From positions 704,001 through 768,000 of the forward strand of contig CAWFQK010000004.1 of assembly GCA_963817955.1 (NCBI GenBank): a stretch of DNA of 64,000 bases, written 5' to 3'. The notes beneath the pieces were generated by a model. The model searched no databases, was not told where the DNA came from, and saw only the letters and a program-made list of their open reading frames with translations. The stretch comes from an uncultured Gemmatimonadaceae bacterium (GTDB lineage: Bacteria > Gemmatimonadota > Gemmatimonadetes > Gemmatimonadales > Gemmatimonadaceae). Shown piece after piece: positions 23,264-39,777 of the stretch (position 1 is the first letter of the stretch; every line of letters begins with the position of its first letter). A program made the translations under genes and the position numbers.

Positions 23264-24222
23264 CTACTGGAACGCCTCTTCCAGTTGTCTCAACCGCGCC
23301 GCGAGCTGCTGTCTGACTGACTTCGGTGCCAGCACCTCGGCCTCCGGCCCGTACTGCAACACATGCCGCATTGCCCAGTGCTCGTCCGCGAGCGGATGCT
23401 CCAGCGTCAGGCTGCCGTCCGGGGCAACGCACTTCCCTTCCCGCTCCGCGATCCATCCAGCGATGCGCGCCGAGTAGCGCACAACGAGTGTCTCGGCGCG
23501 CTCCGCCTCGAAGAGACGGGTGCCCGTGATGATCTCATCGACTGAATAGTCGGGAGCAAGCTCGAAGTGTCTCGTCGGTCTGCGCCACCGACTCCATCCG
23601 GTCGAGCCGGAAGACTCGCAGCGCCTCGCTGGTCCTGGCAGAACGCCACCATGTACCACATGCCGCGAGCGAACACGAGGCTGTACGGGCAGACAATACG
23701 CGATCTCGAGGTCGTCGATGCGCCGGCACGATAGCGGATCTCGAGCTTGCGCCGCAGGCGATGGGCGGCCTGAATGGACGCGAGGTGATCGGCACCAGCG
23801 GCCGAGATCTCCGCGTGCTGTACGCCTTCGAAACGGTCATTGACCGGCAGTCGAGTGATCGCCTGTCGCAGGCGCTCGAGCGCGCGGTCTACTGCCGGCC
23901 ATTCCTCCGGCGTCCGCTCGCGTCGCAGGAGCGCAAGCCCAAGCTCCAATGCGCACAGCTCGCGCATCGTGAGTCGCATCGGTCGCAGGAAGTGCGTCGT
24001 GAATGCACTCACTTCCCTGTCGTCCCACTCGAGGCTCAGGCCGGCGACGAATCCGCTCGGTTCGTCGAAGCGTTCGCCGAGGGAGATCACGTCATCCAGC
24101 AATGTCTTGCGGGAGACGCCCAGCCGTTCCGCAATGTCATCGATGGCGTGGGTCTCGCCGTCCGCGACCTGCGGAATGAGGAGGAGGATTCGATTGAGCG
24201 CGTGCGCGGCGGTGTCGCTCAT
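23264..24222 (-). CDS. PafC-like WYL regulator (copy 2, frameshifted near 23570-23635)
   Basis: High identity to 13271-14227 but split by two +1 insertions; may be a pseudogene or sequencing error. Confidence 0.82.
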
Positions 24223-25325
24223 GCGTCCACCCGTGAGTCCGCCTGTGAGTCCGCCAGACTGCGATCGTAGAGCTTGCGCGTCGTCTGGAGCACCTCGCGG
24301 AACTGCGCGATGATCTCGGGCGGACCAAGCGGTATGGCTTCACCGGCGAAGGAGAGCAGCCACCACACGAATCGATCGGGCCGCCGCACGGCAAATATCC
24401 GGTGGGTCGGTGCGTCCGTCACCGGCGAGCCGAGTGCGGCAGCCGCGATCACCGCGCCGCTCGAGCCGCGGAACTCCACCGTCACCGAGACGACCTCATT
24501 GTCGCCGAGTTCCCACGCGAGTCGGGAGCGAGCGTGCTCGCGGAGCACGAACGATCCCGGAATCTCGTACTGGGGCACCTCGCGGTCGGGAGCAAGCTGC
24601 TTCACTCCCGCTATGCGATTGACGCGGAAGTTGCGCAGTGCACCGCGATCGACGTCTCGCGCGACGAGATACCAGTGTGCGTTGAGAAAGAAGAGCCCAT
24701 AGGGCTCGACCGTCCGAGCGGTGGCGCTGTCATTCGCGACCGCGCGATACTCGAAGCGGACCAGCTTCCGACCGTGCAGGGCGTCGCCCAACGCCTCGAG
24801 CACCCGCCTGTCCGCTGGCGCGCGGGCGGGCACAATCACGGTGTCGTCCGTCGCCGACACGGCTCCGATGGGAAGATCGTACGCCAGCTTCCGCATGGCG
24901 CTCGCCACGTCCGCCGCCAGGGGTGCGTTCCCGAGCTGCTCCGCTCGCGCCGCGCCCTCGGCCACCGCTTGCAGTTCATCCGCGTCGAAGCTCAGGCTCT
25001 TGAGCGAATGATACCCGAACCGATCCACCCGTGAGGGTGTCGACTTCCCGCGTGGCGTGGTGACGGACAGATAGGGCAGGTAGAAGTCCGCGGTGCGCAG
25101 ACGATACCGAAAATCCGTCTCGCCGTCCTCTCCTTCGCTTTCGATGGGAACGCCAAAGGCTTTCAGATCCTTCTTGTCGCGTTCGAACTGGCGCTTGGCG
25201 GTCGCCCTCTCCTTTCCATTGTAGGCCGGTACTTCGCGGGCGATCTCATCGAAGGTGATGGCGCGCTGACGACCGAGCAGCGCGGCCAGGAGGTCGATCC
25301 AGCGTTGCAGCTTGGACGATGACAT
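24219..25325 (-). CDS. PafB-like HTH-WYL-WCX regulator (intact)
   Basis: RQFERDKKDL..FG.PI, RTVEPYGL...HWYLVARD..R.ALRNFRVNRI, WCX tail; ATGA overlap with the pafC-like gene. Confidence 0.9.
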   Translation of the reverse strand: MSSSKLQRWIDLLAALLGRQRAITFDEIAREVPAYNGKERATAKRQFERDKKDLKAFGVPIESEGEDGETDFRYRLRTADFYLPYLSVTTPRGKSTPSRVDRFGYHSLKSLSFDADELQAVAEGAARAEQLGNAPLAADVASAMRKLAYDLPIGAVSATDDTVIVPARAPADRRVLEALGDALHGRKLVRFEYRAVANDSATARTVEPYGLFFLNAHWYLVARDVDRGALRNFRVNRIAGVKQLAPDREVPQYEIPGSFVLREHARSRLAWELGDNEVVSVTVEFRGSSGAVIAAAALGSPVTDAPTHRIFAVRRPDRFVWWLLSFAGEAIPLGPPEIIAQFREVLQTTRKLYDRSLADSQADSRVDA

Positions 25326-25379
25326 TCGCTACGCGGTGGGGAGCTGGTGCGGCATTGGAAGCCTATTCGAAGGAGAAAC

Positions 25380-25562
25380 TTACCGCTCCTGAACCTCGAG
25401 AATCACGATGTTCCTGAACGTCGGGTGCTGCCGTTGGAGCTCCGCCTGGATGGCGAGTTCCGACTGACCGTAGACCGTCAATACGGCCCGATTGACGCGT
25501 CGCTGGTCCGAGCCATCGGTCGAGTGCTCATAGATGACGCTGAATGTCTGGTAGTGCGCCAC
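25380..25562 (-). CDS. Conserved 60-aa hypothetical protein (copy 2)
   Basis: GAGGAGG SD; paralogue of 14842-15024. Confidence 0.7.
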   Translation of the reverse strand: MAHYQTFSVIYEHSTDGSDQRRVNRAVLTVYGQSELAIQAELQRQHPTFRNIVILEVQER

Positions 25563-27450
25563 TCAAGTCGCCTCCTCTGTTCTGGGTAGGTGAGGCCGCA
25601 CCAACTCCGTGAGCGTTTCCTGGTCTACAATAGACTCCGACATCAGCCGATTGGCTATGGCATCCAGGAGCGGGCGATGCTGGGCAAGCATCTCCTTCAC
25701 CACTCCGTATTCTGTAGAGAGGAACGCGCGCACGAGTTCCTCGATGTGTGCCGCTTCCGAGCTAATGTCGAAAGGTGTGGAAATAGACGGAAGGCGGTGA
25801 CACCTTCTCGGGTGAGTCCAATCACCCCCGGGAGAATCCCGGCAACGAAAAGGAGCCACCGCCCATGAAGAAGATGAAGGATGAGCCAGCCACGTCAAGC
25901 GCGACGTGGGACACGTTGGAGTCCTTTGCGCGGATGCATATCCAAGGATTCATTCAGCAGCTGTTGGAAGAGGAGGTGACCGAGCTGCTCGGGCGACAGA
26001 AGTCCGCGCGCCGCAGCGCGGTGGATGCGCCGACCGGGGCGCGCAACGGGCACGGGAAGCCGCGAAACCTCTCGCTCATGAATGGGACCATCGTGGTGCG
26101 CCGGCCACGGGTGCGCGACCTGGATGAGCTGTTCGTGAGCCGCCTGCTGCCGCTCTTTCAGCGGCGCACCAAGGAACTGAGCACGCTGTTGCCCGAGCTG
26201 TATTTGCATGGCCTCGCGCTCGGGGATTTCGAACTCGCGCTCCGCGGCCTGTTGGGCGACGGGGCGCCGCTGAGTGCGAGCTCGCTCGTGCGCCTCAAGG
26301 CGACGTGGCAGGCGGAGTATGCGGTGTGGCAGCGGCGCGACCTGAGCGACCTCAAGCTGGTGTATCTCTGGGCGGACGGCGTGTATGTGAAAGCCGGGCT
26401 TGAGCACAGCAAGGCAGCGCTCCTGGTGTTGATCGGCGCCGACGCGGAGGGGCGGAAACACGTTCTCGCGGTGACCAGTGGCGAACGCGAATCGGTGGTG
26501 AGCTGGACCGCCGTGCTCCGCGACCTGAAGGCGCGCGGGCTCTGCGCCCCCAAGCTCACGATCGCCGATGGGCATCTCGGGCTCTGGGGCGCACTCGCGG
26601 CGATCTATCCGACGAGTGCCGAGCAGCGGTGTTGGAATCACAAGATACGGAATGTGCTCGACCTGGTGCCGAAGAAACGCCAAGCCGAAGTCACCGTGCA
26701 GCTCCAGCAGATCGCCGCGGCGGAGACACTGCGGGCGGCGGTGCGGCTGCGCGATGCGTTTGCCCGCACGTACCGTCGCGTGGTGCCCAAAGCCGTCGAG
26801 TGCCTCGAGCGTGATTGGGACCGCCTGGTCGCGTACTACGCCTTTCCGCAGGAGCACTGGAAGCATCTGCGCACGACGAACGTGATCGAATCACCGTTTG
26901 CCGCGGTGCGGCTCCGCACGATCCGCGGCGAAGCGCTTCAAGAAAGTCGACAATGCCACGACGTTGATCTGGAAAACCTTACTCGTCGTCGAACAACATT
27001 TCCGCAAACTGAACGCCCCGCACCTCTGTACCGACGTGTACGATGGCGCCGTGTTTCACGACGGTATCTGCACCGTGACCCCGACCCGGGAACGGATCGC
27101 CGCCTGACGCCTATTTACACACCAATTGACAAGAGCTCCCGCTTCCGAGGCGCAGATTGATACGCACGTCGTGACGCATATCGGCGTACGTGTCTCGATC
27201 ACCAGACTCGTACAGGAACTTGTACGATTCCACAACGGCACCCTTCAGGTTCGCAGACGGCAGGATGGATGAGTATTCCGGAACATTCTGGCCGTCGGAG
27301 TCGATGACGGCGACCAGGGCGTGTCCAGCCTCGTGGTACGCCGTCTGCCGGCGGATCGCTTCTATCTCCGTGGACGGCAACTCTGCCTCCTCGAAGCCGC
27401 GCAGGGTCAGGTTGACCAGATCGACGAACTCCAATTTGCGTTTCTCGCGT
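25563..27450 (-). pseudogene. FtsH-like peptidase M41 3' region, interrupted by IS256 and 5'-truncated
   Basis: AYHEAGHALV (27140-27434 segment) and L.QHRPLLDAIA.RL..E.IVD (25563-25758 segment) flank the IS. Confidence 0.75.
25759..27138 (+). mobile_element. IS256-family element with transposase (25865 to ~27107, frameshift near 26920)
   Basis: Imperfect terminal IRs (GAGCT..TGTC....GGTGTG.AAATAG), 8-bp target duplication CCGCTTCC at 25751-25758 and 27139-27146, and motifs YLWADGVY, QRCWNHK, RTTNVIES. Confidence 0.95.
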
Positions 27451-27485
27451 GGGGCCGATTAGTATTCCTATTGCAGGGCTGCTCC

Positions 27486-27719
27486 ATGCTGATTGAGAAC
27501 CCGATAGCAATCGCCTCTTCCTACTGGGCGAAACTGCCACGATTAATATGGCAGAATCACATCCCAGTAGCCTCGACGCCCATGGGCGAATCGAAAATAA
27601 TGGTTCGACTCGACTTGGGCGGACGTGACGACGCATACACGTTACACGTTCTCAGATGGAAATCAGGGGCCGGAGTATTCATTCCGGCCTTGTGGGTGTC
27701 CGAAACCCTCAACCAGCAT
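27486..27719 (+). ncRNA. Candidate retron-like (msr/msd-type) structured RNA
   Basis: ATGCTGATTGAG / CTCAACCAGCAT inverted repeat (11/12) encloses hairpins at 27502-27513, 27521-27570, 27577-27621, 27623-27642 and 27668-27689; upstream of a retron-type RT. Confidence 0.55.
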
Positions 27720-27737
27720 CAGAGGAGGTGAAGATAC

Positions 27738-28064
27738 ATGCGAATCGGGAAACCGAAGAAGGCACTCCGCAAACTGCGCGGCACGAAGCGTGGCAACGAG
27801 GTGCCGAATCGGCGGACACGAGTTTCGAACGGGAAGCCCTCATGGTTCCCGACGGATATCGCGAGCGTTGCCAAGGCCGTTGGTAAGCTCGTCACTTCGG
27901 AGGTCACGAAGTGCCTAGTGACCGAGGCTTACAACGTCATCCGCGAATACGTATCGAGACTCACCATCCGCACTACACTCCGCTTCGGCGGCTGCACCAT
28001 ACGACTAGACCGAGCGCTCTCGAAAGTCATGAGCGGCTCGGTCTTGTCAATTCCTCCGGTATGA
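27738..28064 (+). CDS. 108-aa orphan protein coupled to the RT (candidate effector)
   Basis: Strong SD GAGGAGGT at 27722-27729; TGA overlaps the RT ATG (ATGA at 28061-28064); basic N-terminus and an amphipathic central helix. Confidence 0.55.
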   Translation: MRIGKPKKALRKLRGTKRGNEVPNRRTRVSNGKPSWFPTDIASVAKAVGKLVTSEVTKCLVTEAYNVIREYVSRLTIRTTLRFGGCTIRLDRALSKVMSGSVLSIPPV

Positions 28065-29164
28065 CGAACGCAGGTCGCAAGCTCGGACTTGGGAGTATCG
28101 CGGGTACGCTGTGCACAAAGATCGCGTGCCTCAGGAAGCACGCCGCTGAAGTGAACACTTCCTATTCGCGTTACCCGAAGAAGAAGTCGTCTGGCGGCCA
28201 TCGGTGGATAAGTACTCCATCTGATGAGCTGAAAGAGCTACAGGGTCGCCTTCGCGAGCGCATCCTCGAACCACTCTCCTCCACGCCCGAACTCCTCGCC
28301 GTGTTGATGCGAGACCCGCTCCGAAATGCTCGCCTGCATGAAGACGCCGCTCACATCTTGATGCTCGACTTGAAGGAGGCGTTCCCGTCAACCTCAGCGC
28401 GGCGTGTGAGAAACACTCTCGTTCGAGCTGGCATGGACTCTCCAGCGGCGCGACTCATCACAGAGCTGACTACATACCGCGACGAGCTTCCGCAGGGAGC
28501 CCCCACGAGCAACGCACTCCTCGACCTGGTTTTGCGCCCAATGGATAGAGCCATCGTTCGGTTCTGCAGACGGCGTGGTGTCCAATACACTCGCTACGCC
28601 GACAACCTTGCCTTCTCATCAGAGGAACCACTCAACTGCGTGGAGCGTTTCGTCCGTCGGAAGCTTGGGGAGTACGAATTCGAGATCAATCCGCCGGTGT
28701 ACGGAGGTCGTTCGGCTCCAGTGGACATAACCGGCGTACTCACTGGCAAGTCTCTCCGGGTTCGGCCGAAGACGATCGAGAAGACCAAGGCTCGTATCAT
28801 CGCCGCCGAGGCCACTGGCTCCGAGCCTGAAAAGGCGTCCGCGAGGGGGGCAATGGGCTGGGTCGTTCGTGTGAACCCTCGACAGGCGGCAGAACTCGTC
28901 TCCCAGACGCTTCCACCCGAAAGTGAACTCGCGAAAGCCCTGGCACCAAGACGTCGGCCTTCAGCTGTTGATAACAGCGTGAGTTGCGGCGAGCGACTGC
29001 GGATTAGCTCAACCTCGCCAAAGTGCCTCGACGGGGTCTACTCCGATTCCCTGATCTGTTCCGGACGGCACCCCATCCCGCCACATCGCGTACAGGATTC
29101 CTACGAGCCGCCGCTCCAGGGCGACCACCGCGATGCGTCAAGTGCGCGACATCACGCCGAGTGA
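28061..29164 (+). CDS. Retron-type reverse transcriptase with a YADN catalytic motif
   Basis: KKSSGGHRWISTP, LKELQ, NARLH (retron NAxxH), LDLKEAFPS, LPQGAPTS, YTRYADNLAFS, ITGV (VTG region), GWVVRVNP thumb. Confidence 0.88.
   Translation: MTNAGRKLGLGSIAGTLCTKIACLRKHAAEVNTSYSRYPKKKSSGGHRWISTPSDELKELQGRLRERILEPLSSTPELLAVLMRDPLRNARLHEDAAHILMLDLKEAFPSTSARRVRNTLVRAGMDSPAARLITELTTYRDELPQGAPTSNALLDLVLRPMDRAIVRFCRRRGVQYTRYADNLAFSSEEPLNCVERFVRRKLGEYEFEINPPVYGGRSAPVDITGVLTGKSLRVRPKTIEKTKARIIAAEATGSEPEKASARGAMGWVVRVNPRQAAELVSQTLPPESELAKALAPRRRPSAVDNSVSCGERLRISSTSPKCLDGVYSDSLICSGRHPIPPHRVQDSYEPPLQGDHRDASSARHHAE
29055..29140 (-). mobile_element. IS110-family transposase C-terminal remnant
   Basis: Minus strand reads RIAVVALERRLVGILYAMWRDG, typical of IS110 C-termini. 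Confidence 0.6.
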
Positions 29165-29281
29165 CCTCGACAAACACAAAGGTGCGGACAGGCGGTAAGT
29201 TGGCGATTGTCAGTGGTGCGGTGCAAGTTCAATCTCTCGCCGCCCGGCATCACCTGGCGCCCCCTCCTGAACAACTTATAG

Positions 29282-32797
<3,516 letters not shown>

Positions 32798-32802
32798 ACT
32801 CC

Positions 32803-33790
32803 ATGAGGGAGCTCAACGTCTCCTGCGAATCGATCATCTTACGGTCAAGAACTTCCGCTGCTTTGCAGCTTGCGATCTCAAGCTGCACGCCAAAGCTGAC
32901 GGTTCTTGTCGCGGAGAATGCTGCAGGGAAAGACGTGCGCTGCTCGATGCGCTGCGTTTGGTTCTCCAGGGTTTTGTTACTTCGGCCGGAAGTGTCGGGC
33001 AGCACCGTGGCTTCGAACGGACGGATATACATCTGGAGCAGAGTAAACAGCACTGTCGATGGAGACGCGACTTCCAACCGAGTTTCACGTTGATGGGGAG
33101 GTCGATGGCGAGTGTGTTTCTTGGCTTCGCACTCTGAGCAAAGGCAGTTTGCACGCCAAGACGTCAACAAGGAATCTCAGGGGCATCCAGCGGATCGCCA
33201 ACGCCTAGCTGACCGAGCAGACCGTACACGACAATTTCCCGATCGATTCGTCCACAATCTTGCCAGTTGTGGCCTATTACGGGACAGGGCGGCTTCTACG
33301 ACGAGCAGCGCCTTACGAAAAGCAGGCGGTGGCTGGCCGGATCCAGTCCAAGCCGCGTTTCAGCATACCTGGATTGCCTCTCACCTTCATCGTCCTATAA
33401 ATCGTTCTCCACTTGGTTTGGTCAGAAATGGGAACAGGTCAGTGAGCCTCGCTTTCGTGCGGTAGGATTTGAAGCCCGACCAGAGAATCAAATTGCAGCG
33501 GTGCGCAATGCGGTCCAGCACCGTGCTCGATCCCACGAGTGGCTGGACAACCATTGTGTGGACCCCAGCGACTCTAGATGCCGTACGGACGCAACTGTTA
33601 GCCCGGGCTATATCGCGCTAGAACATTCAGAGAAAGGTCAGCTTCCACTAACCCACCTCAGTGACGGTGTGCGCAACATGGTCGCCCTCGTCGGTGATTT
33701 GGCCCACCGGTGCGTGCGATTGAATCCGTTCTTCGGCGAAGACGCAGCCAAGCGAACCCCGGGAATTGTCCTTATCGATGAAGTGGAGAT
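32803..33790 (+). pseudogene. PtuA/OLD-like ABC ATPase (AAA_21), frameshifted and 3'-truncated
   Basis: RIDHL.VKNFRCF, ENAAGK, LSDGVRNM.ALVGDLAHRC..LNP, PGIVLIDEVE; the expected HLHP.WQ does not follow. Confidence 0.75.
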
Positions 33791-34025
33791 CAAATCCTAC
33801 ATCGGAGGTGACAGCATCAGGAGGTTGTTACAAGCTCGGGGCGTTCGAGCTCGCAAGTGTGAGTGTCTCAGCAGCAACAACTTGCAACGCGACTGATCTA
33901 CCATCCGCCGCAGAGTTTTGTCATCCTTTCAAAGCAAGCCAAAGAGGTGGTCGACCACTTTTGTGGATTCACTTCCTCGAAAGCTGGCAAGTCGCCGAAG
34001 GGAGCGACGCAGTGACAACTAAGCC

Positions 34026-36956
34026 ATGGCCGACTATCCCATCAAATCACCCCGCAAGCTCATCGAGGTCGCGCTGCCGCTGGATGCGATCAATGCGGCT
34101 TGTGCGCGGGAGAAATCCATCCGGCATGGGCATCCATCCACACTGCATCTTTGGTGGGCGCGGCGACCGCTGGCGGCGGCGCGGGCGGTCATCTTTGCGC
34201 AGTTGGTCAATGATCCCGGCTACCAGCAGGGCGGCGGGTTCAAATACGGGAAGAACAAGAAGGAAGCCGCCATCGAGCGGAAGCGGCTGTTCAAAATCAT
34301 CGAAGACCTCGTGCTGTGGGAGAACACCACCAACGAGGAAGTGCTGGAGCGCGCCCGCGCCGAGATTCGCCGCTCATGGCGGGAGGTGTGCGAGCTGAAC
34401 AAGGACCACCCGCAGGCCGCCGAGCTGTTCAATCCCGACAAGCTGCCCGCCCTGCACGATCCCTTTGCCGGTGGCGGAGCCATCCCGCTGGAGGCGCAGC
34501 GGCTGGGGCTGGAGGCTTACGCCAGCGACCTCAACCCCGTGGCCGTGCTCATCAACAAGGCCATGATCGAGATCCCGCCCAAGTTCGCGGGCAGGCCGCC
34601 GGTCAGCCTTCTGCAAAGCCGCCAAGTCGCGAAGAAGAAGGAACTGGATTTGGAACGGGAATGGCCCGGTGCCACCGGTCTGGCGGAAGACGTGCGCTAC
34701 TACGGCGCTTGGATGCGCGAGGAAGCGCAGAAGCGCATCGGCCACCTCTATCCGCCGGTTGAAATCACGGCGGAGATGGCAAAGGAACGGCCCGACCTCA
34801 AACCGCTCGTCGGCCAGAAACTCACCGTCATTGCTTGGCTCTGGGCGCGGACGGTCAAGAGTCCCAATCCGGCGTTCTCGCATGTGGATGTGCCGCTGGC
34901 TTCAACATTCGTTCTTTCGAGTAAAGAAGGGAAAGACAGCTTACGTTCAGCCCGATGTCGCAAGGCGACAGCTACAGTTTCACGGTTAAGATTGGGCACT
35001 CCCGCCGGATGCGGCAAAGACTGGCACAAAGCTAAGGCGCGGATCGAATTTCCGTTGCATTGCTATCGGACGTCCGCTATCGACGCGAACTACATCCAAG
35101 CTGAAGCACAAGCGGGGCGAATGGGGACTAGGTTGATGGCGGTTGTTGCCGAAGGCGACCGTGGCCGGTTTATCTTATCACCACCCAGAGCATGAAGCCG
35201 TCGCAGCTACGGCAAAGCCCGAACTGGAAACCCGATTTGGAAGTTCCGACTCCTTGCCACGATGTGGACAGACTTCCGATGTATGGAATGCCGACATGGG
35301 GCGACGCTGTTCACTCGACGGCAATTGGTGGCGTTGACGACGTTTAGCCGACCTCGTTGCGGAAGCGCGAGAAGATCGTAAGATCGCTTGCAACGGATGT
35401 TACCGACGACGGGTAAGGGCATGGAGGCGTGGACAGTAGCGACAGCCTATGCCGAAGCTGTCAGCGTTTCTTGGCGTTCGCGGTCGAGCGAAGCGCGCAA
35501 CTACTGGTCAATGCACTTTACGCCATGGGCCGATGGTCTCAATGTCCAGAACCTTTTGGGAGACAGGCGATACCAATGATTTGGGATTTTGCTGAAGTAA
35601 ATCCGTCTTCTCGGATTCCGGTCTGGGAATTTCGCGAGTGGTGCCAATTGACTTGGATAGAGCGAGTAATTGCCAATGTCTACCGGCTCGTTCCGCGGGT
35701 TTGGCAGTTCAAGCTGACGCACAAACACAGACATCAGCCAAGAAAAGTCATTTCCACTGACCCTCCCTACTACGACAATATCGGCTACGCGGACCTCTCC
35801 GATTTTTTCTATGTCTGGCTACGCAGAGGCTCTGCGCCCAATGTATCCCGAATCTGTTTGCGACGATCGCGGTTCCGAAGGCTGAAGAACTGGTTGCAAT
35901 CCACTATCGCCACGGCGGCAAAGAAAAGGCAGAGGCATTCTTTCTTGACGGCATGACCGAAGCCATGAGCGAACTCTGGTCAATCAAGCGCACCCGACTG
36001 TCCCGGTCACGATCTACTATGCATTCAAGCAGTCCGAAACGAACGATGGATGCTGGCAACAGCTCAGCACAGGATGGGAGACCTTTCTTGGCGCGGTTCA
36101 TCGAGCAGGACTTCAATTAGCGGCACTTGGCCGATGCGAACAGAGCGCTCACAAGGACGTTAAGGCCAAGCTCGAACGCCCTCGCTTCCAGCATCATCCT
36201 CGTCTGCCGCAAACGCCCGCCGACGCACCCTCCATTTCCCGCCGCGAGTTCATCCGCGAGTTGAACGGCGTGCTGCCCGAGGCGCTCGACGAGATGACCA
36301 AAGGTTCCGGCGACGAGCGTTCGCCCGTGGCCCCGGTGGACCTTTCGCAGGCCATCATCGGGCCGGGCATGGCGGTCTTTTCCAAATACGCCGCCGTGCT
36401 GGAGGCCGACGGCTCGCCCATGAGCGTGCGCACCGCCCTCCAGCTCATCAACCGCTTCCTCGCCGAGGACGATTTCGACGCCGACACCCAGTTCTGCCTG
36501 CACTGGTTCGAGCAGCACGGCTGGACGGAAAGCGTCTTTGGCGAAGCCGACGTGCTGGCCCGCTCCAAATCCACGAGCGTGGACGCCATGAAGGAAGCCG
36601 GGGTGCTGCAAAGCGGCAGCGGCAAAGTGCGCCTGCTCAAGTGGGCCGAGTATCCCACCGATTGGGACCCGCGCACCGACACCCGCACGCCCGTCTGGGA
36701 AGCTCTGCACCAGCTCATCCGCGCCCTGAAACAAGGCGGCGAATCCGCCTCCGGCGCGCTCCTCGCCGCCCTCGGCGGCAAGGCCGAAGCCGTGCGTCAA
36801 CTCGCCTACCGCCTGTACACCCTCTGCGAACGCCTCGGCAAAGCCGAAGACGCCCGCGCCTACAACGAACTCATCACCAGTTGGACCGGCATCGAATCCG
36901 CCGCCGCCAGCGCGTCCGAAACCTGCCGACCGGCAAGGCGACGCTGTTTGAACTAA
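34026..36956 (+). CDS. DUF1156 adenine DNA methyltransferase (multiple frameshifts)
   Basis: [66 protein letters not shown]. Confidence 0.9.
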
Positions 36957-36963
36957 GTGAGCA

Positions 36964-39777
36964 ATGACTATGAGCCTGAAACCCTGGCGAGAAATCATCG
37001 TTCCCCACCCGGACGTGCTGAATGGCACGTTCCAACAATCCGAGTTCGCCGCCGACCTCACCGCCGTGCGCACCGGCAAGGCGACCCCGGAATACGGCGA
37101 CGCAAAGGCGTTTTACGAGCGCACCTTCATCACCGAGGGCATGGGGCGACTGCTCACCCAAGTGTCGCAGCGGCTCAATGGCAAGGGCGGCGAGCCGGTC
37201 ATCCAACTGCAAACCGCCTTCGGTGGCGGCAAGACGCACACGATGCTGGCTGTGTATCACCTGGCTCTCGCGCAAATGTCCGCTGGGCGACTTGTCTGGC
37301 ATCCCGGCGCTGCTCGATCACGCCGGATTGCTGGATGTGCCGCAGGCGCAGATCGCGGTGCTGGACGGCACCGCCCACGCTCCCGGCCAGCCGTGGAAGC
37401 ATGGTAAGCAGGCGATCCGGACGCTCTGGGGCGAACTGGCATGGCAGCTTGGAAAGGCGGAGGGCTTTGCGCTGGTGCAGGAAGCCGACGCCAACGGAAC
37501 GTCGCCGGGCAAGGATGTGCTCTGCACGCTGCTGGCTCGCTATCGCGCCGTGCGTGGTGCTGCTCGACGAGCTGGTCGTTTACATCCGCCAGTTCGTGGA
37601 GAGCCAACCGCTGAGCGGCGGCACCTACGACAGCAACCTGTCTTTCATCCAATCGCTGACGGAGGCGGCCAAGCTCGTGCCGAATGCGGTGGTGCTGGCT
37701 TCGCTGCCGGAATCCGACAGCCAGGCCGGTGGTCCGCGTGGCGTGGCGGCATTGAAGGCGCTGGAGGCGGTCTTCAACCGGGTGCAGGCGCTTTGGAAAA
37801 CGGTGGCACCCGAGGAAGCATTCGAGATCGTCCGGCGTCGCCTGTTTGAACCAATCCGCGATGCCAAGGCGCGTGACCAGGTGTGCCGGGCTTTTGCCGA
37901 CGCCTACGTGGCCGAAGGCGCAAAGGTGCCCGCAGGAAACTCAGGAGTCCCGTTACTTTGACCGGATGATGCAGAGCTACCCGATCCACCCCGAGGTGTT
38001 TGCCCAGCTCTATGAGGAGTGGACGACCATCGATGGATTCCAGCGCACGCGCGGCGTGCTGAAGCTGATGGCGAAAGTCATCTATCGTCTGTGGCAGGAC
38101 GACAACAAGGACCTGATGATTCTGCCCGGCAGTCTGCCGCTTTACGACGGAAGTGCGCGCAACGAGTTGATTTACTATCTCGGGCCCGGCTGGGATCCGG
38201 TGATGGACCGGGACATTGACGGCGAGCGGGCTGAGACCACGGTACTTGGAAGCCAAGGAGCCGCGATTTGGCTCCGTGCAGGCCGCCCGCCGCGTGGCGC
38301 GAACGGTGTTCCTTGGGCAGCGCGCCGTCTTCGGTGACCACGCAAGCCTGGAATCCGCGGCATCGACCGCGCGCGAGTGCTGCTCGGCTGTCTCCAACCC
38401 GGCCAGACTTCCTCTCTCTACTCCGATGCGCTGAATCGGCTGGCGGACCAACTCCACTACCTGAACTCCTCCGGCGACAAGGCGCAGGACGCGACCCGCT
38501 ACTGGTTCGACACCCGCGCCAATCTGCGCCGAGAGATGGAGGAGCGGAAGAAGCGGTTCGAAGACAAGAATGAAGTGCGCGGGCGAATGGCGGAGGTCGT
38601 CAAGAAGCTCGCCAGCTGGCGCCACCTTCTTCGACGGCACGCATATCTTCACCCCGCACGGCGACGTGCCCGACGATAGTGCATTGCGTCTGGTTGTGCT
38701 GGCCCCGGAGCAGTTTTATTCGCGCGAGGAACCGCGCCTGGCCGTTGAAGCCGTGCTCGACTATGTGCGGAACAACGGCACCGAAGCCGCGGTATCGCGG
38801 CAATCGCTTGATCTTCCTCGCGCCCGATCATGGAGCCCTGACACGACTGCGCGATTGCATCCGCGTGGCGCTGGCCTGGAACTCCATCGTCGAAGATGTT
38901 GCCGCCATGCGCCTGGTGCTGGACAATCTCCAAGCGCAACAAGCCAAGAAGGAACTGAAAGGGGCGGAGGACGTTTTGCCGCGAGTCGCCCGCGAATGCT
39001 ACAAGTGGCTGCTCTGCCCGGCGCAGGAGAACCCGACCGCCGCAAAGCCGACGGTGGAGGTTTTTCCTCTCAATACCGGCGGCGGCGGCTTTGGGACCTG
39101 AGATCGAGCGAGTGTGCATCGACAACGAACTGGTGATCGCGACCTGGTCGCCGATCCATCTGCGCGCTGAGTTGAAGGAACTTTATTGGAAGGCCGACAA
39201 GCCCGCCGTCGAGCGCGCTGGCTTTCTGGGAAGACACGCTTCGCTACCTATATCTGCCACGCCTGAAGAATCGCGACGTGCTGGCAGCAAGCCATCGTCA
39301 AAGGTGCCGGCAGCCGGGATTTCTTCGGCACCGCCTACGGGCAGCATGACGGCAAGTTCGACGGATTCAAGCTCGGTGACGCCAACGTTCAATTCGACGA
39401 CACGCTGCTGCTAATCGAGCCAGAGGCGGCGCTGGCAGTACGAGGCGGCGCATGCGCGGATCGATCCATTGGTCGTTATCCCGCCCATGCCTCTGTTCGT
39501 CTCACCGCTGACCGTCCAGCCTCCCTTACCGCCACCGATAACCACGAACCCGCGCGCATTCCACGGCAACGTGGTCATCAACGCATCCAGCGCGAAGATG
39601 CGGTTCGTGGAGCTTGCGGATGAGATTGTTGCCGTGCTTGCAGGGGATCCCAACGCGGACGTCACGATCACCGTGGAGATTCACGTGCAGTACCCGACCG
39701 GTGCGTCAGACCAGATCAAGCGTGCGGTGTCGGAAAACGCGAGAGCGCTCAAGTTCCGGAACGCCGACTGGGAGTGA
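36964..39777 (+). CDS. DUF499 AAA+ ATPase (multiple frameshifts)
   Basis: LKPWRE...[54 protein letters not shown]-terminal R.VSENA..LKF. Confidence 0.9.

Follow-up and report, generated by a model that had tools for sequence, protein, structure and literature searches.

The 64,000-nucleotide (nt) stretch of DNA analysed here (the window; contig CAWFQK010000004.1, positions 704,001 to 768,000, assembly GCA_963817955.1 of an uncultured Gemmatimonadaceae bacterium) carries a locus that probably belongs to the retrons, as a rare offshoot within the Type VI-like lineage, in which genes for a small protein (SP) and a helix-turn-helix protein (HTH) precede the reverse transcriptase (RT) gene (SP-HTH-RT layout). 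The locus is ordered as a structured RNA (27452-27737), a 108-codon open reading frame (ORF108, 27738-28064) and the RT (from 28061), all on the plus strand. Retrons are anti-phage RT systems, each equipped with a folded RNA. The preliminary description of this DNA had proposed a new retron type. The parts it listed, an RT of the retron family, a structured RNA belonging to it and an intervening small ORF, in a defence island, were all present. The type itself was not upheld, since the RT grouped with loci of the Type VI layout; a small variable ORF is a hallmark of Type VI and the nearest relatives are SP-HTH-RT loci, so that an orphan small ORF does not make a new type. The system is of a known kind, and its combination of a missing HTH, an orphan 108-amino-acid (aa) ORF and an RT family with a YxDN motif was not found described.

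The retron RT core spans 304 codons (28061-28972, plus strand) with the motifs NARLH, LPQGAPTS, YADN and ITG, matched the Pfam domain RVT_1 at 4.6e-12 and shared 93% identity with its closest homologue, P0003. NAXXH and VTG are given as marks of retron RTs in the accessible part of Mestre et al. 2020. The retron signatures reported earlier for this protein were confirmed, as NARLH and ITG (along with YTRYADN) in the window RT and as NAxxH and (V/I)TG in 10 of 10 members of the family defined below. All 25 PADLOC matches listed were to retron RT models (1e-43 to 1e-40), with near-tied best scores for II-A (147.2 bits), III-A (140.4 bits) and VI (137.7 bits). To scale these scores, 48 other retron RTs were scanned on PADLOC; strong own-type scores ranged from about 290 to 670 bits and the cross-type scores listed from about 204 to 380 bits, and 6 of the 48 were without a match at 1e-60. 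The weak, near-tied scores thus place the window RT outside every PADLOC retron model. Type II-A (St85/Sen2, Ec86) provided the best-scoring PADLOC and NCBIfam models, but 147 bits compare with 399-406 bits for two true II-A RTs, and the NCBIfam St85 model (NF038233) gave 136 bits against a cutoff of 235. No deoxyribosyltransferase-like effector was found at the locus, and II-A RTs were located elsewhere in the tree. The Sen2 retron likewise has its effector gene placed between RNA and RT.

A word-based search scored 7999 RT candidates, 818 of them at E<=1e-10. The window RT, P0003 (304 aa, 93%) and P0004-P0011 (36-45% identity) formed a family of 10 clusters, beyond which the next match dropped to 7e-34. 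Two residues were invariant, the Asp of motif A and the leading Asp of motif C. Instead of the catalytic YxDD, the window RT reads YADN; YxDN was found in 8 of the 10 members, P0007 and P0010 keeping YxDD, and in none of the other 111 homologues listed (8 among 121 listed overall). At motif C of the other 159 RTs from the loci collected for the phylogeny, 142 displayed YxDD and one FYDS, and 17 were unreadable. As judged from sequence, the polymerase chemistry may be altered or weak, given the replacement of Asp by Asn in YxDD. The same change cripples the RT of HIV-1, whereas poliovirus polymerase bearing it retains activity when other metal ions are supplied. Searching the full text of papers for 'YADN' together with 'reverse transcriptase' returned only matches to the yadN gene.

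The RT frame continues beyond the core for 63 codons (28973-29164, plus strand). As P0003 and the other members end at or near residue 304 and the tail scored as non-coding (codon score -0.279, against +0.136 for the core), this tail is probably read-through, the stop having probably been lost by a one-nucleotide change or an assembly indel.

The RT was placed in a careful maximum-likelihood tree (IQ-TREE) of 50 RTs, drawn from a chosen subset of 160 loci, 14 homologue proteins and 6 later loci. The 160 loci were fetched by scanning metagenome and genome contigs with the family alignment; the listed matches were generic retron RTs, and among the 160 loci listed there was no family member, the best reaching 42% identity over part of the RT. 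The family of 10 was supported at 100/99. It belonged to a 21-row clade (ultrafast bootstrap 94, SH-aLRT 98) together with P0012-14, P0016 and the loci L008, L009 and L243-L247; these seven loci were all ordered non-coding RNA (ncRNA), SP (79-132 aa), XRE-type HTH and RT. The phylogeny speaks against the independent type proposed at the outset. Among later loci, L249, L250 and L252 also showed the SP-HTH-RT layout, L248 and L251 were III-A-like and L253 was a fragment (L249-L253 stood outside the tree). The HTH of L009, the only one scanned among the seven clade loci, matched PADLOC HTH_VI at 1.6e-17. In L034, the HTH matched HTH_VI at 4.1e-20 and the RT was best matched by RT_VI (202.7 bits); FastTree put this locus at the base of the clade (support 92), whereas the careful tree left it unplaced. 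An upstream HTH was also present in five loci whose RT_VI scores were canonical (237-256 bits); together with a type V RT they made up a clade of their own. All 11 near-relative loci for which DNA was at hand had an HTH, either immediately before the RT or fused with it, and the nine of them readable at motif C all had YxDD.

Among the genomes searched, the family itself had a patchy distribution. It was absent from the relatives' genomes (0 of 60) and from other species of the genus (0 of 30). The family profile matched 6 of 400 other genomes of the phylum at E<=1e-45 and 8 of 400 genomes of the bacterial family at E<=1e-40, and six of these eight loci had the SP-HTH-RT layout; with 149-206 bits, against 456 for the window RT, none of the phylum and family matches is a family member. 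Viral contigs yielded 254 relatives, none of the family, and plasmids searched by tblastn matched the RT at 29% identity at most.

The SPs of the sister loci formed a family, seen in SP-HTH-RT retrons of this phylum, in which a V-S pair is conserved as part of an N-A-G-V-S-like motif and which matched no PADLOC model. Its genes were located at L008:40-432, L009:1959-2354, L244:867-1232, L245:2767-3003 (minus strand), L246:886-1275 and L247:858-1241. Four of the six proteins end in -AA (L-A-A in two), the tail overlapping the HTH gene. A frameshift interrupts the SP of L243, and L247 has its HTH and RT fused into one.

The window locus departs from this layout by the lack of an HTH. In the six frames translated from 27000-29500, the best match to a profile of 10 sister HTHs had an E of 0.93, and no Cro/C1-type HTH (cl2_1) was found. 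The HTH was likewise missing in X1, a peat-metagenome relative whose 33-kb contig matched 27452-30495 at 91.5% identity (258 substitutions, 16 gaps); as the X1 span measures 3050 nt against 3044 nt, this relative also holds no extra gene. Relatives of the same layout, at about 91-97% DNA identity, were found in 4 metagenome runs. The hallmark of Type VI is a gene for a small, hypervariable protein placed between the ncRNA and the RT, as described in the accessible parts of three papers (Mestre 2020; Zhang 2025; Garcia-Rodriguez 2026). About 78% of the catalogued Type VI entries carry an HTH and about 22% do not, according to the part of the preprint available (Garcia-Rodriguez 2026, bioRxiv 10.64898/2026.04.27.721009), so that HTH-less forms are catalogued but unstudied.

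Compared with the Type VI Retron-Vpa2, the locus shares the order of RNA, small ORF and RT, a lineage-specific small protein without known domain (putative here) and a defence context; the ribosome-binding site (RBS) and start of its small ORF are predicted to be folded into the RNA, as they are in Vpa2. It differs from Vpa2 by the lack of an HTH between the small ORF and the RT, by the unrelated sequence of ORF108, by YADN instead of YADD, and by an RT_VI score of 137.7 bits against 237-256 bits for the five canonical members. In Retron-Sen3, as far as the accessible part of the source goes, the HTH is an antitoxin needed for viability; the window has no HTH, and the Sen3 mechanism is therefore inapplicable as described. 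The sister loci L008, L009, L243-L247, L249, L250 and L252, which come from the bacterial family and phylum of the window and from metagenomes, all have an HTH, a shared SP family and YxDD, whereas the window locus has none of the three. It has in common with L009 and L243 both arms of the helix closing the RNA and the placement of the Shine-Dalgarno (SD) sequence, and the small ORFs of the sister loci are similar in size (79-132 aa) and also carry strong SDs.

The structured ncRNA, msr/msd-like leader (27452-27737, plus strand), was delimited to the left by the start of the block common to relatives, the contigs of both the X1 and X2 runs beginning to match the window at 27452. Its 5' arm, a1-like (ATGCTGATTGAG, 27486-27497, plus strand), and its 3' arm, a2-like (CTCAACCAGCAT, 27708-27719, plus strand), were both found by inverted-repeat search. 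The multi-hairpin region of about 235 nt that had been noticed earlier was thus recovered, but its closing repeat of 12 base pairs is complementary at 11 of 12 positions only, with 210 nt between the arms. An equally good inverted repeat occurred in 10 of 300 mononucleotide shuffles, so the repeat alone is only mildly unusual. The fold of 27436-27740 reached -112.8 kcal/mol (z -3.54), with none of 100 shuffles as good, and z-scores over the tested stretches of the locus ranged from -3.5 to -3.8. A multi-hairpin fold resulted whether or not the closing helix was enforced (-112.7 and -108.0 kcal/mol). Among the RNA substitutions listed for the X1 relative, nine in number, five were unpaired, three kept a pair (C-G to U-G once, G-U to A-U twice) and one broke a pair. 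Rfam, searched over 25000-31000 in evalue mode, gave no match.

The core of the closing helix is common to the window, L009 and L243. It reads AUGCUG/CAGCAU in the window, UUGCUG/CAGCAA in L009 and UUACUG/CAGUAA in L243, two positions being altered on both sides in a compensatory way among the three sequences compared; the core thus covaries with L009 and L243. The 5' arm lies at -252, -234 and -260 from the start of the small ORF (window, L009 and L243, respectively) and the 3' arm at -32, -32 and -29. The 5' context is GGGCUGCUCC-AUGCUGAU in the window, GGGGCUCC-GGUUGCUGAU in L009 and GGGGCUCC-GAUUACUGAU in L243, and the 3' context, UCAACCAG(C/U)A followed by the SD, is the same in the three. 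The 3'-arm motif TCAACCAG recurs immediately 5' of the small-ORF SD in L009, L243 and L252, the last one reading CTCAACCAG and then AAGGAGG. The arms are 216-245 nt apart, and each RNA forms four to five hairpins at -87 to -89 kcal/mol. When both strands of the 4.53-Mb genome were searched for the composite motif of TCAACCAG, at most 10 nt and GGAGG or GAGGG, it occurred 4 times, once at the locus; as it was defined with the window already in the alignment, this count is indicative only. Taken with this reserve, the motifs are indicative of kinship between the window RNA and the RNAs of the SP-HTH-RT loci. An internal copy of ATGCTGATTGA, identical to the window 5' arm, was seen about 123 nt before the L243 SP start, besides the 5' arm of L243 itself; it may be a direct repeat as in Type VI hybrid RNAs.

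ORF108 is preceded by the strong SD described earlier (GAGGAGGTG, 27722-27730, plus strand; ATG at 27738), which stands directly 3' of the closing helix. Comparably strong SDs preceded 9 of the 9 sister SP genes printed. The 3' end of the 16S rRNA of this genome carries the canonical CCUCC, and SD use in the genome is low (19% of naive starts, against an 11% background). A candidate anti-SD, GCTCC (27481-27485, plus strand), is located directly 5' of a1 and occupies the same place in L009 and L243; a second candidate, CCTCTTCC, lies at about 27514-27521 (plus strand), and the unconstrained minimum free energy (MFE) fold pairs about 27511-27520 with the SD. When the helix is enforced, its extension is predicted to cover the SD and the AUG of ORF108. 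In both folds, free and enforced, SD and AUG pair with the 5' part of the RNA, either with GCUCC (27481-27485) or with CCUCUUCC (about 27514-27521). By thermodynamic folding and the three sequences compared, the RBS is predicted to be sequestered in the basal stem, as it may be in SP genes. In the MFE fold of 27452-28110, a stretch shortly beyond the end of ORF108 (28060-28101) pairs with 27462-27495, only 9 pairs being kept in the centroid. This pairing is reminiscent of the flanking repeat described for SP genes of Type VI.

ORF108 itself (P0002, 108 aa, 27738-28064, plus strand) has basic N-terminal 40 residues and, as previously noted, a stop overlapping the RT start (ATGA at 28061-28064). 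The earlier failure to recognise an effector family was borne out by Pfam, PADLOC and NCBIfam scans, none of which gave a family match (PADLOC, no match at E<=1). No entry was found in the ESM Atlas and no match by plasmid tblastn, and the 90% cluster of ORF108 comprised 2 member sequences. A BLASTP comparison with the SP of L009 gave an E of 4.1, the sister SP profile run against the six frames of 27000-29500 a best E of 0.19, and the prediction of an RT and ORF108 complex a score of 0.00 with no verdict. The window has both helix arms, and an SD immediately behind the helix, in common with L009 and L243, so that ORF108 occupies the position of the SP toxin; it is the positional equivalent of a Type VI SP by its place between ncRNA and RT and by its SD context, with no sequence kinship. 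We consider ORF108 somewhat more likely to be translated than not, and, by analogy, a presumptive effector.

Several observations weigh against assigning the locus to a Type VI-like side branch with a small effector. For Type VI, whose RTs make up RT clade 3 of Mestre et al., RT_VI was only the third-best PADLOC model for the window RT (1.1e-40), and the node joining the 21-row clade to the clade of five canonical RT_VI sequences and a type V RT had a support of 26/91. The RT has lost its stop and its neighbourhood is degraded. ORF108 had no homologue among 5.8 billion (word-based search) or 1.84 billion (phmmer) proteins and is an orphan although relatives of the RT at 36-45% identity exist; its alignment with the sister SPs reached an hhalign probability of 0.1%, as for unrelated sequences. 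Its codon score of 0.138, below which 13% of 800 true-gene windows fall, was reached by 17% of 2010 spurious ORFs. Six differences from relatives, among those listed, were four times non-synonymous and twice synonymous, the single-sequence AlphaFold2 model was too poor for a fold search (predicted local distance difference test score 46), and the ORF108 stretch is strongly structured as RNA (z -3.60) and possibly non-coding. As for the RNA, nhmmer profiles of the 3' parts of sister ncRNAs (9 and 4 sequences) did not match the window RNA, and RNAalifold on MAFFT alignments returned no pairs or a misaligned 5' arm, hence no usable consensus. Given these negatives, the evidence for RNA kinship consists of short motifs that were noticed when the window was already part of the alignment. 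The covariation that the preliminary description had asked for was seen at two compensatory helix positions among three sequences, and not as an alignment-wide consensus.

If the locus is a Type VI-like retron, its working may be outlined by analogy with two studied systems, for which the preprints were accessible in part. In Retron-Vpa2, a hybrid RNA silences translation of the SP toxin gene until it is released by msDNA that phage induces (Zhang et al. 2025, bioRxiv 10.1101/2025.10.22.683967), and in Retron-Sen3 the SP is constitutive and neutralised by the HTH, which is required for viability (Garcia-Rodriguez et al. 2026, bioRxiv 10.64898/2026.04.27.721009). At the window locus, a single transcript starting near 27452 would comprise a folded RNA of about 270 nt, the 108-codon ORF and the RT, with the SD and start of ORF108 predicted to be buried in the basal extension of the closing helix. 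ORF108 would be a toxic effector, as are the SPs of Vpa2 and Sen3, and the RNA fold would keep its translation low. Upon infection, the RT would act on the RNA, through complementary DNA synthesis or remodelling on binding, and open the basal stem; the effector would then be made and the infected cell arrested. As there is no HTH antitoxin, control would rest on RNA and RT alone, and we infer that only a Vpa2-like RNA-based control or a direct neutralisation by RT and RNA would be possible.

An unlikely alternative, which nevertheless accounts for several of the points above, is that ORF108 is no gene and that a single long and structured retron RNA fills 27452-28060 (as an extended msd or the remnant of a hybrid RNA), with the effector located elsewhere, e.g., in the adjacent helicase-nuclease, or absent. 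The orphan state and ambiguous codon score of ORF108, the z-score of -3.60, the predicted pairing of 27462-27495 with 28060-28101 and the 4:2 ratio of non-synonymous to synonymous changes among the differences listed would all fit a non-coding stretch, and an effector elsewhere would fit the X1 relative, which keeps retron and helicase contiguous. Against it stand the arrangement of helix, SD and start, which is that of real sister SP genes, the ATGA overlap with the RT and the contigs of two relatives, gap-free across 27730-28021 and 27765-28158 and hence without frame-breaking gaps. The SP coding region of cl2075 retrons is under RNA structural selection, as stated in the accessible part of Garcia-Rodriguez et al. 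2026 (bioRxiv 10.64898/2026.04.27.721009), so structure is no argument against coding. A second candidate frame, an 81-codon ORF running from the first a1 base to just past a2 (27486-27731), was rejected, having no SD, a codon score of 0.10 and a 1-nt deletion in X1.

It is also conceivable, at rather long odds, that the YxDN lineage largely gave up DNA synthesis, and that its RT serves as an RNA-binding sensor or antitoxin holding a silenced hybrid RNA, with ORF108 as a new small basic effector and no HTH. If true, this would be a third mechanism in the Type VI radiation and a natural retron without reverse transcription.

The surroundings of the locus bear on whether it is still functional. 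To its right, a defence island (29282-37961) comprises a helicase with ResIII/SNF2, Helicase_C and NOV_C (DUF3883) domains, an ATPase-like ORF, a DUF1156 methyltransferase and DUF499. Restriction-like genes are therefore present downstream, as had been claimed, but not as an intact operon: every large gene of the island is split over at least 2 frames, and DUF499 is a fragment. These splits are either real frameshifts or assembly indels, as far as can be read from the sequence. Single bases, at 30172 and 30191, are missing from the homologous contigs of four metagenome runs. ORFs of up to 1128 aa are intact elsewhere in the window, which suggests local decay rather than a generally bad assembly. 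To the left lie a Mutator/IS256-family transposase (25865-27160, PF00872 at 1.7e-57) and, on the minus strand, a truncated M41-like peptidase fragment with a HEAGH motif (27111-27434; E 1.5e-5, below the Pfam cutoff). The fragment shows no AAA domain upstream and starts within 17 nt of the retron block; a minus-strand ORF at 25563-25898 may be its C-terminal remainder. Two adjacent WYL-domain regulators, one with a PafC-type HTH, are encoded on the minus strand just upstream of the island (23407-25325). A sigma70 promoter had been proposed before the RNA (TTGCGT-N18-TAGTAT, 27436-27465). It agrees with the consensus at 7 of 12 positions only, was unreported by a promoter scan, and has its -35 element outside the block common to relatives, which starts at 27452; this promoter is weak and no more than chance is shown.

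Such a neighbourhood would fit a decaying remnant, in which an SP-HTH-RT retron lost HTH and SP by rearrangement while the RT gained YADN, lost its stop and became non-functional. The helicase, DUF1156 and DUF499 genes split over frames, the insertion sequence and truncated M41-like gene abutting the locus and the lost RT stop speak for such a course, and, because the HTH is required in Retron-Sen3 (as reported in the part of that preprint available), loss of the HTH would select for inactivation. We regard decay as improbable nonetheless, since 8 of the 10 family clusters, which span 36-93% identity, have YxDN with the other RT motifs intact, the RT can be read through 304 codons without a break and is 93% identical to P0003 there, the relatives of 4 runs have the same layout, and the RNA arms and the SD are preserved. 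An independent and undescribed retron type, standing apart from all thirteen known ones, as first proposed on the strength of an orphan effector and compatible with a best PADLOC RT score of only 147 bits and an St85 score of 136 under a cutoff of 235, is very improbable, as the tree puts the family among SP-HTH-RT loci with which it shares the RNA arms, the HTH of L009 matches HTH_VI, and the layout is that of Type VI minus the HTH, a state seen in about 22% of catalogued Type VI entries in the accessible part of the source.

A Type VI-like retron without HTH bears on how these systems operate. The mechanisms published for Type VI conflict, in the parts of the sources available, between msDNA-dependent release of translation in Vpa2 and an HTH-SP toxin-antitoxin in Sen3, and both involve the HTH. 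A lineage that lacks the HTH, carries YxDN and has an unrelated SP would be a test of which parts are essential, of control of the toxin by RNA only and of the need for full polymerase activity, and ORF108 is a candidate new small effector. SP-HTH-RT retrons whose RT scores below what is usual for PADLOC Type VI occurred in about 2% of the sampled genomes of one soil bacterial family.

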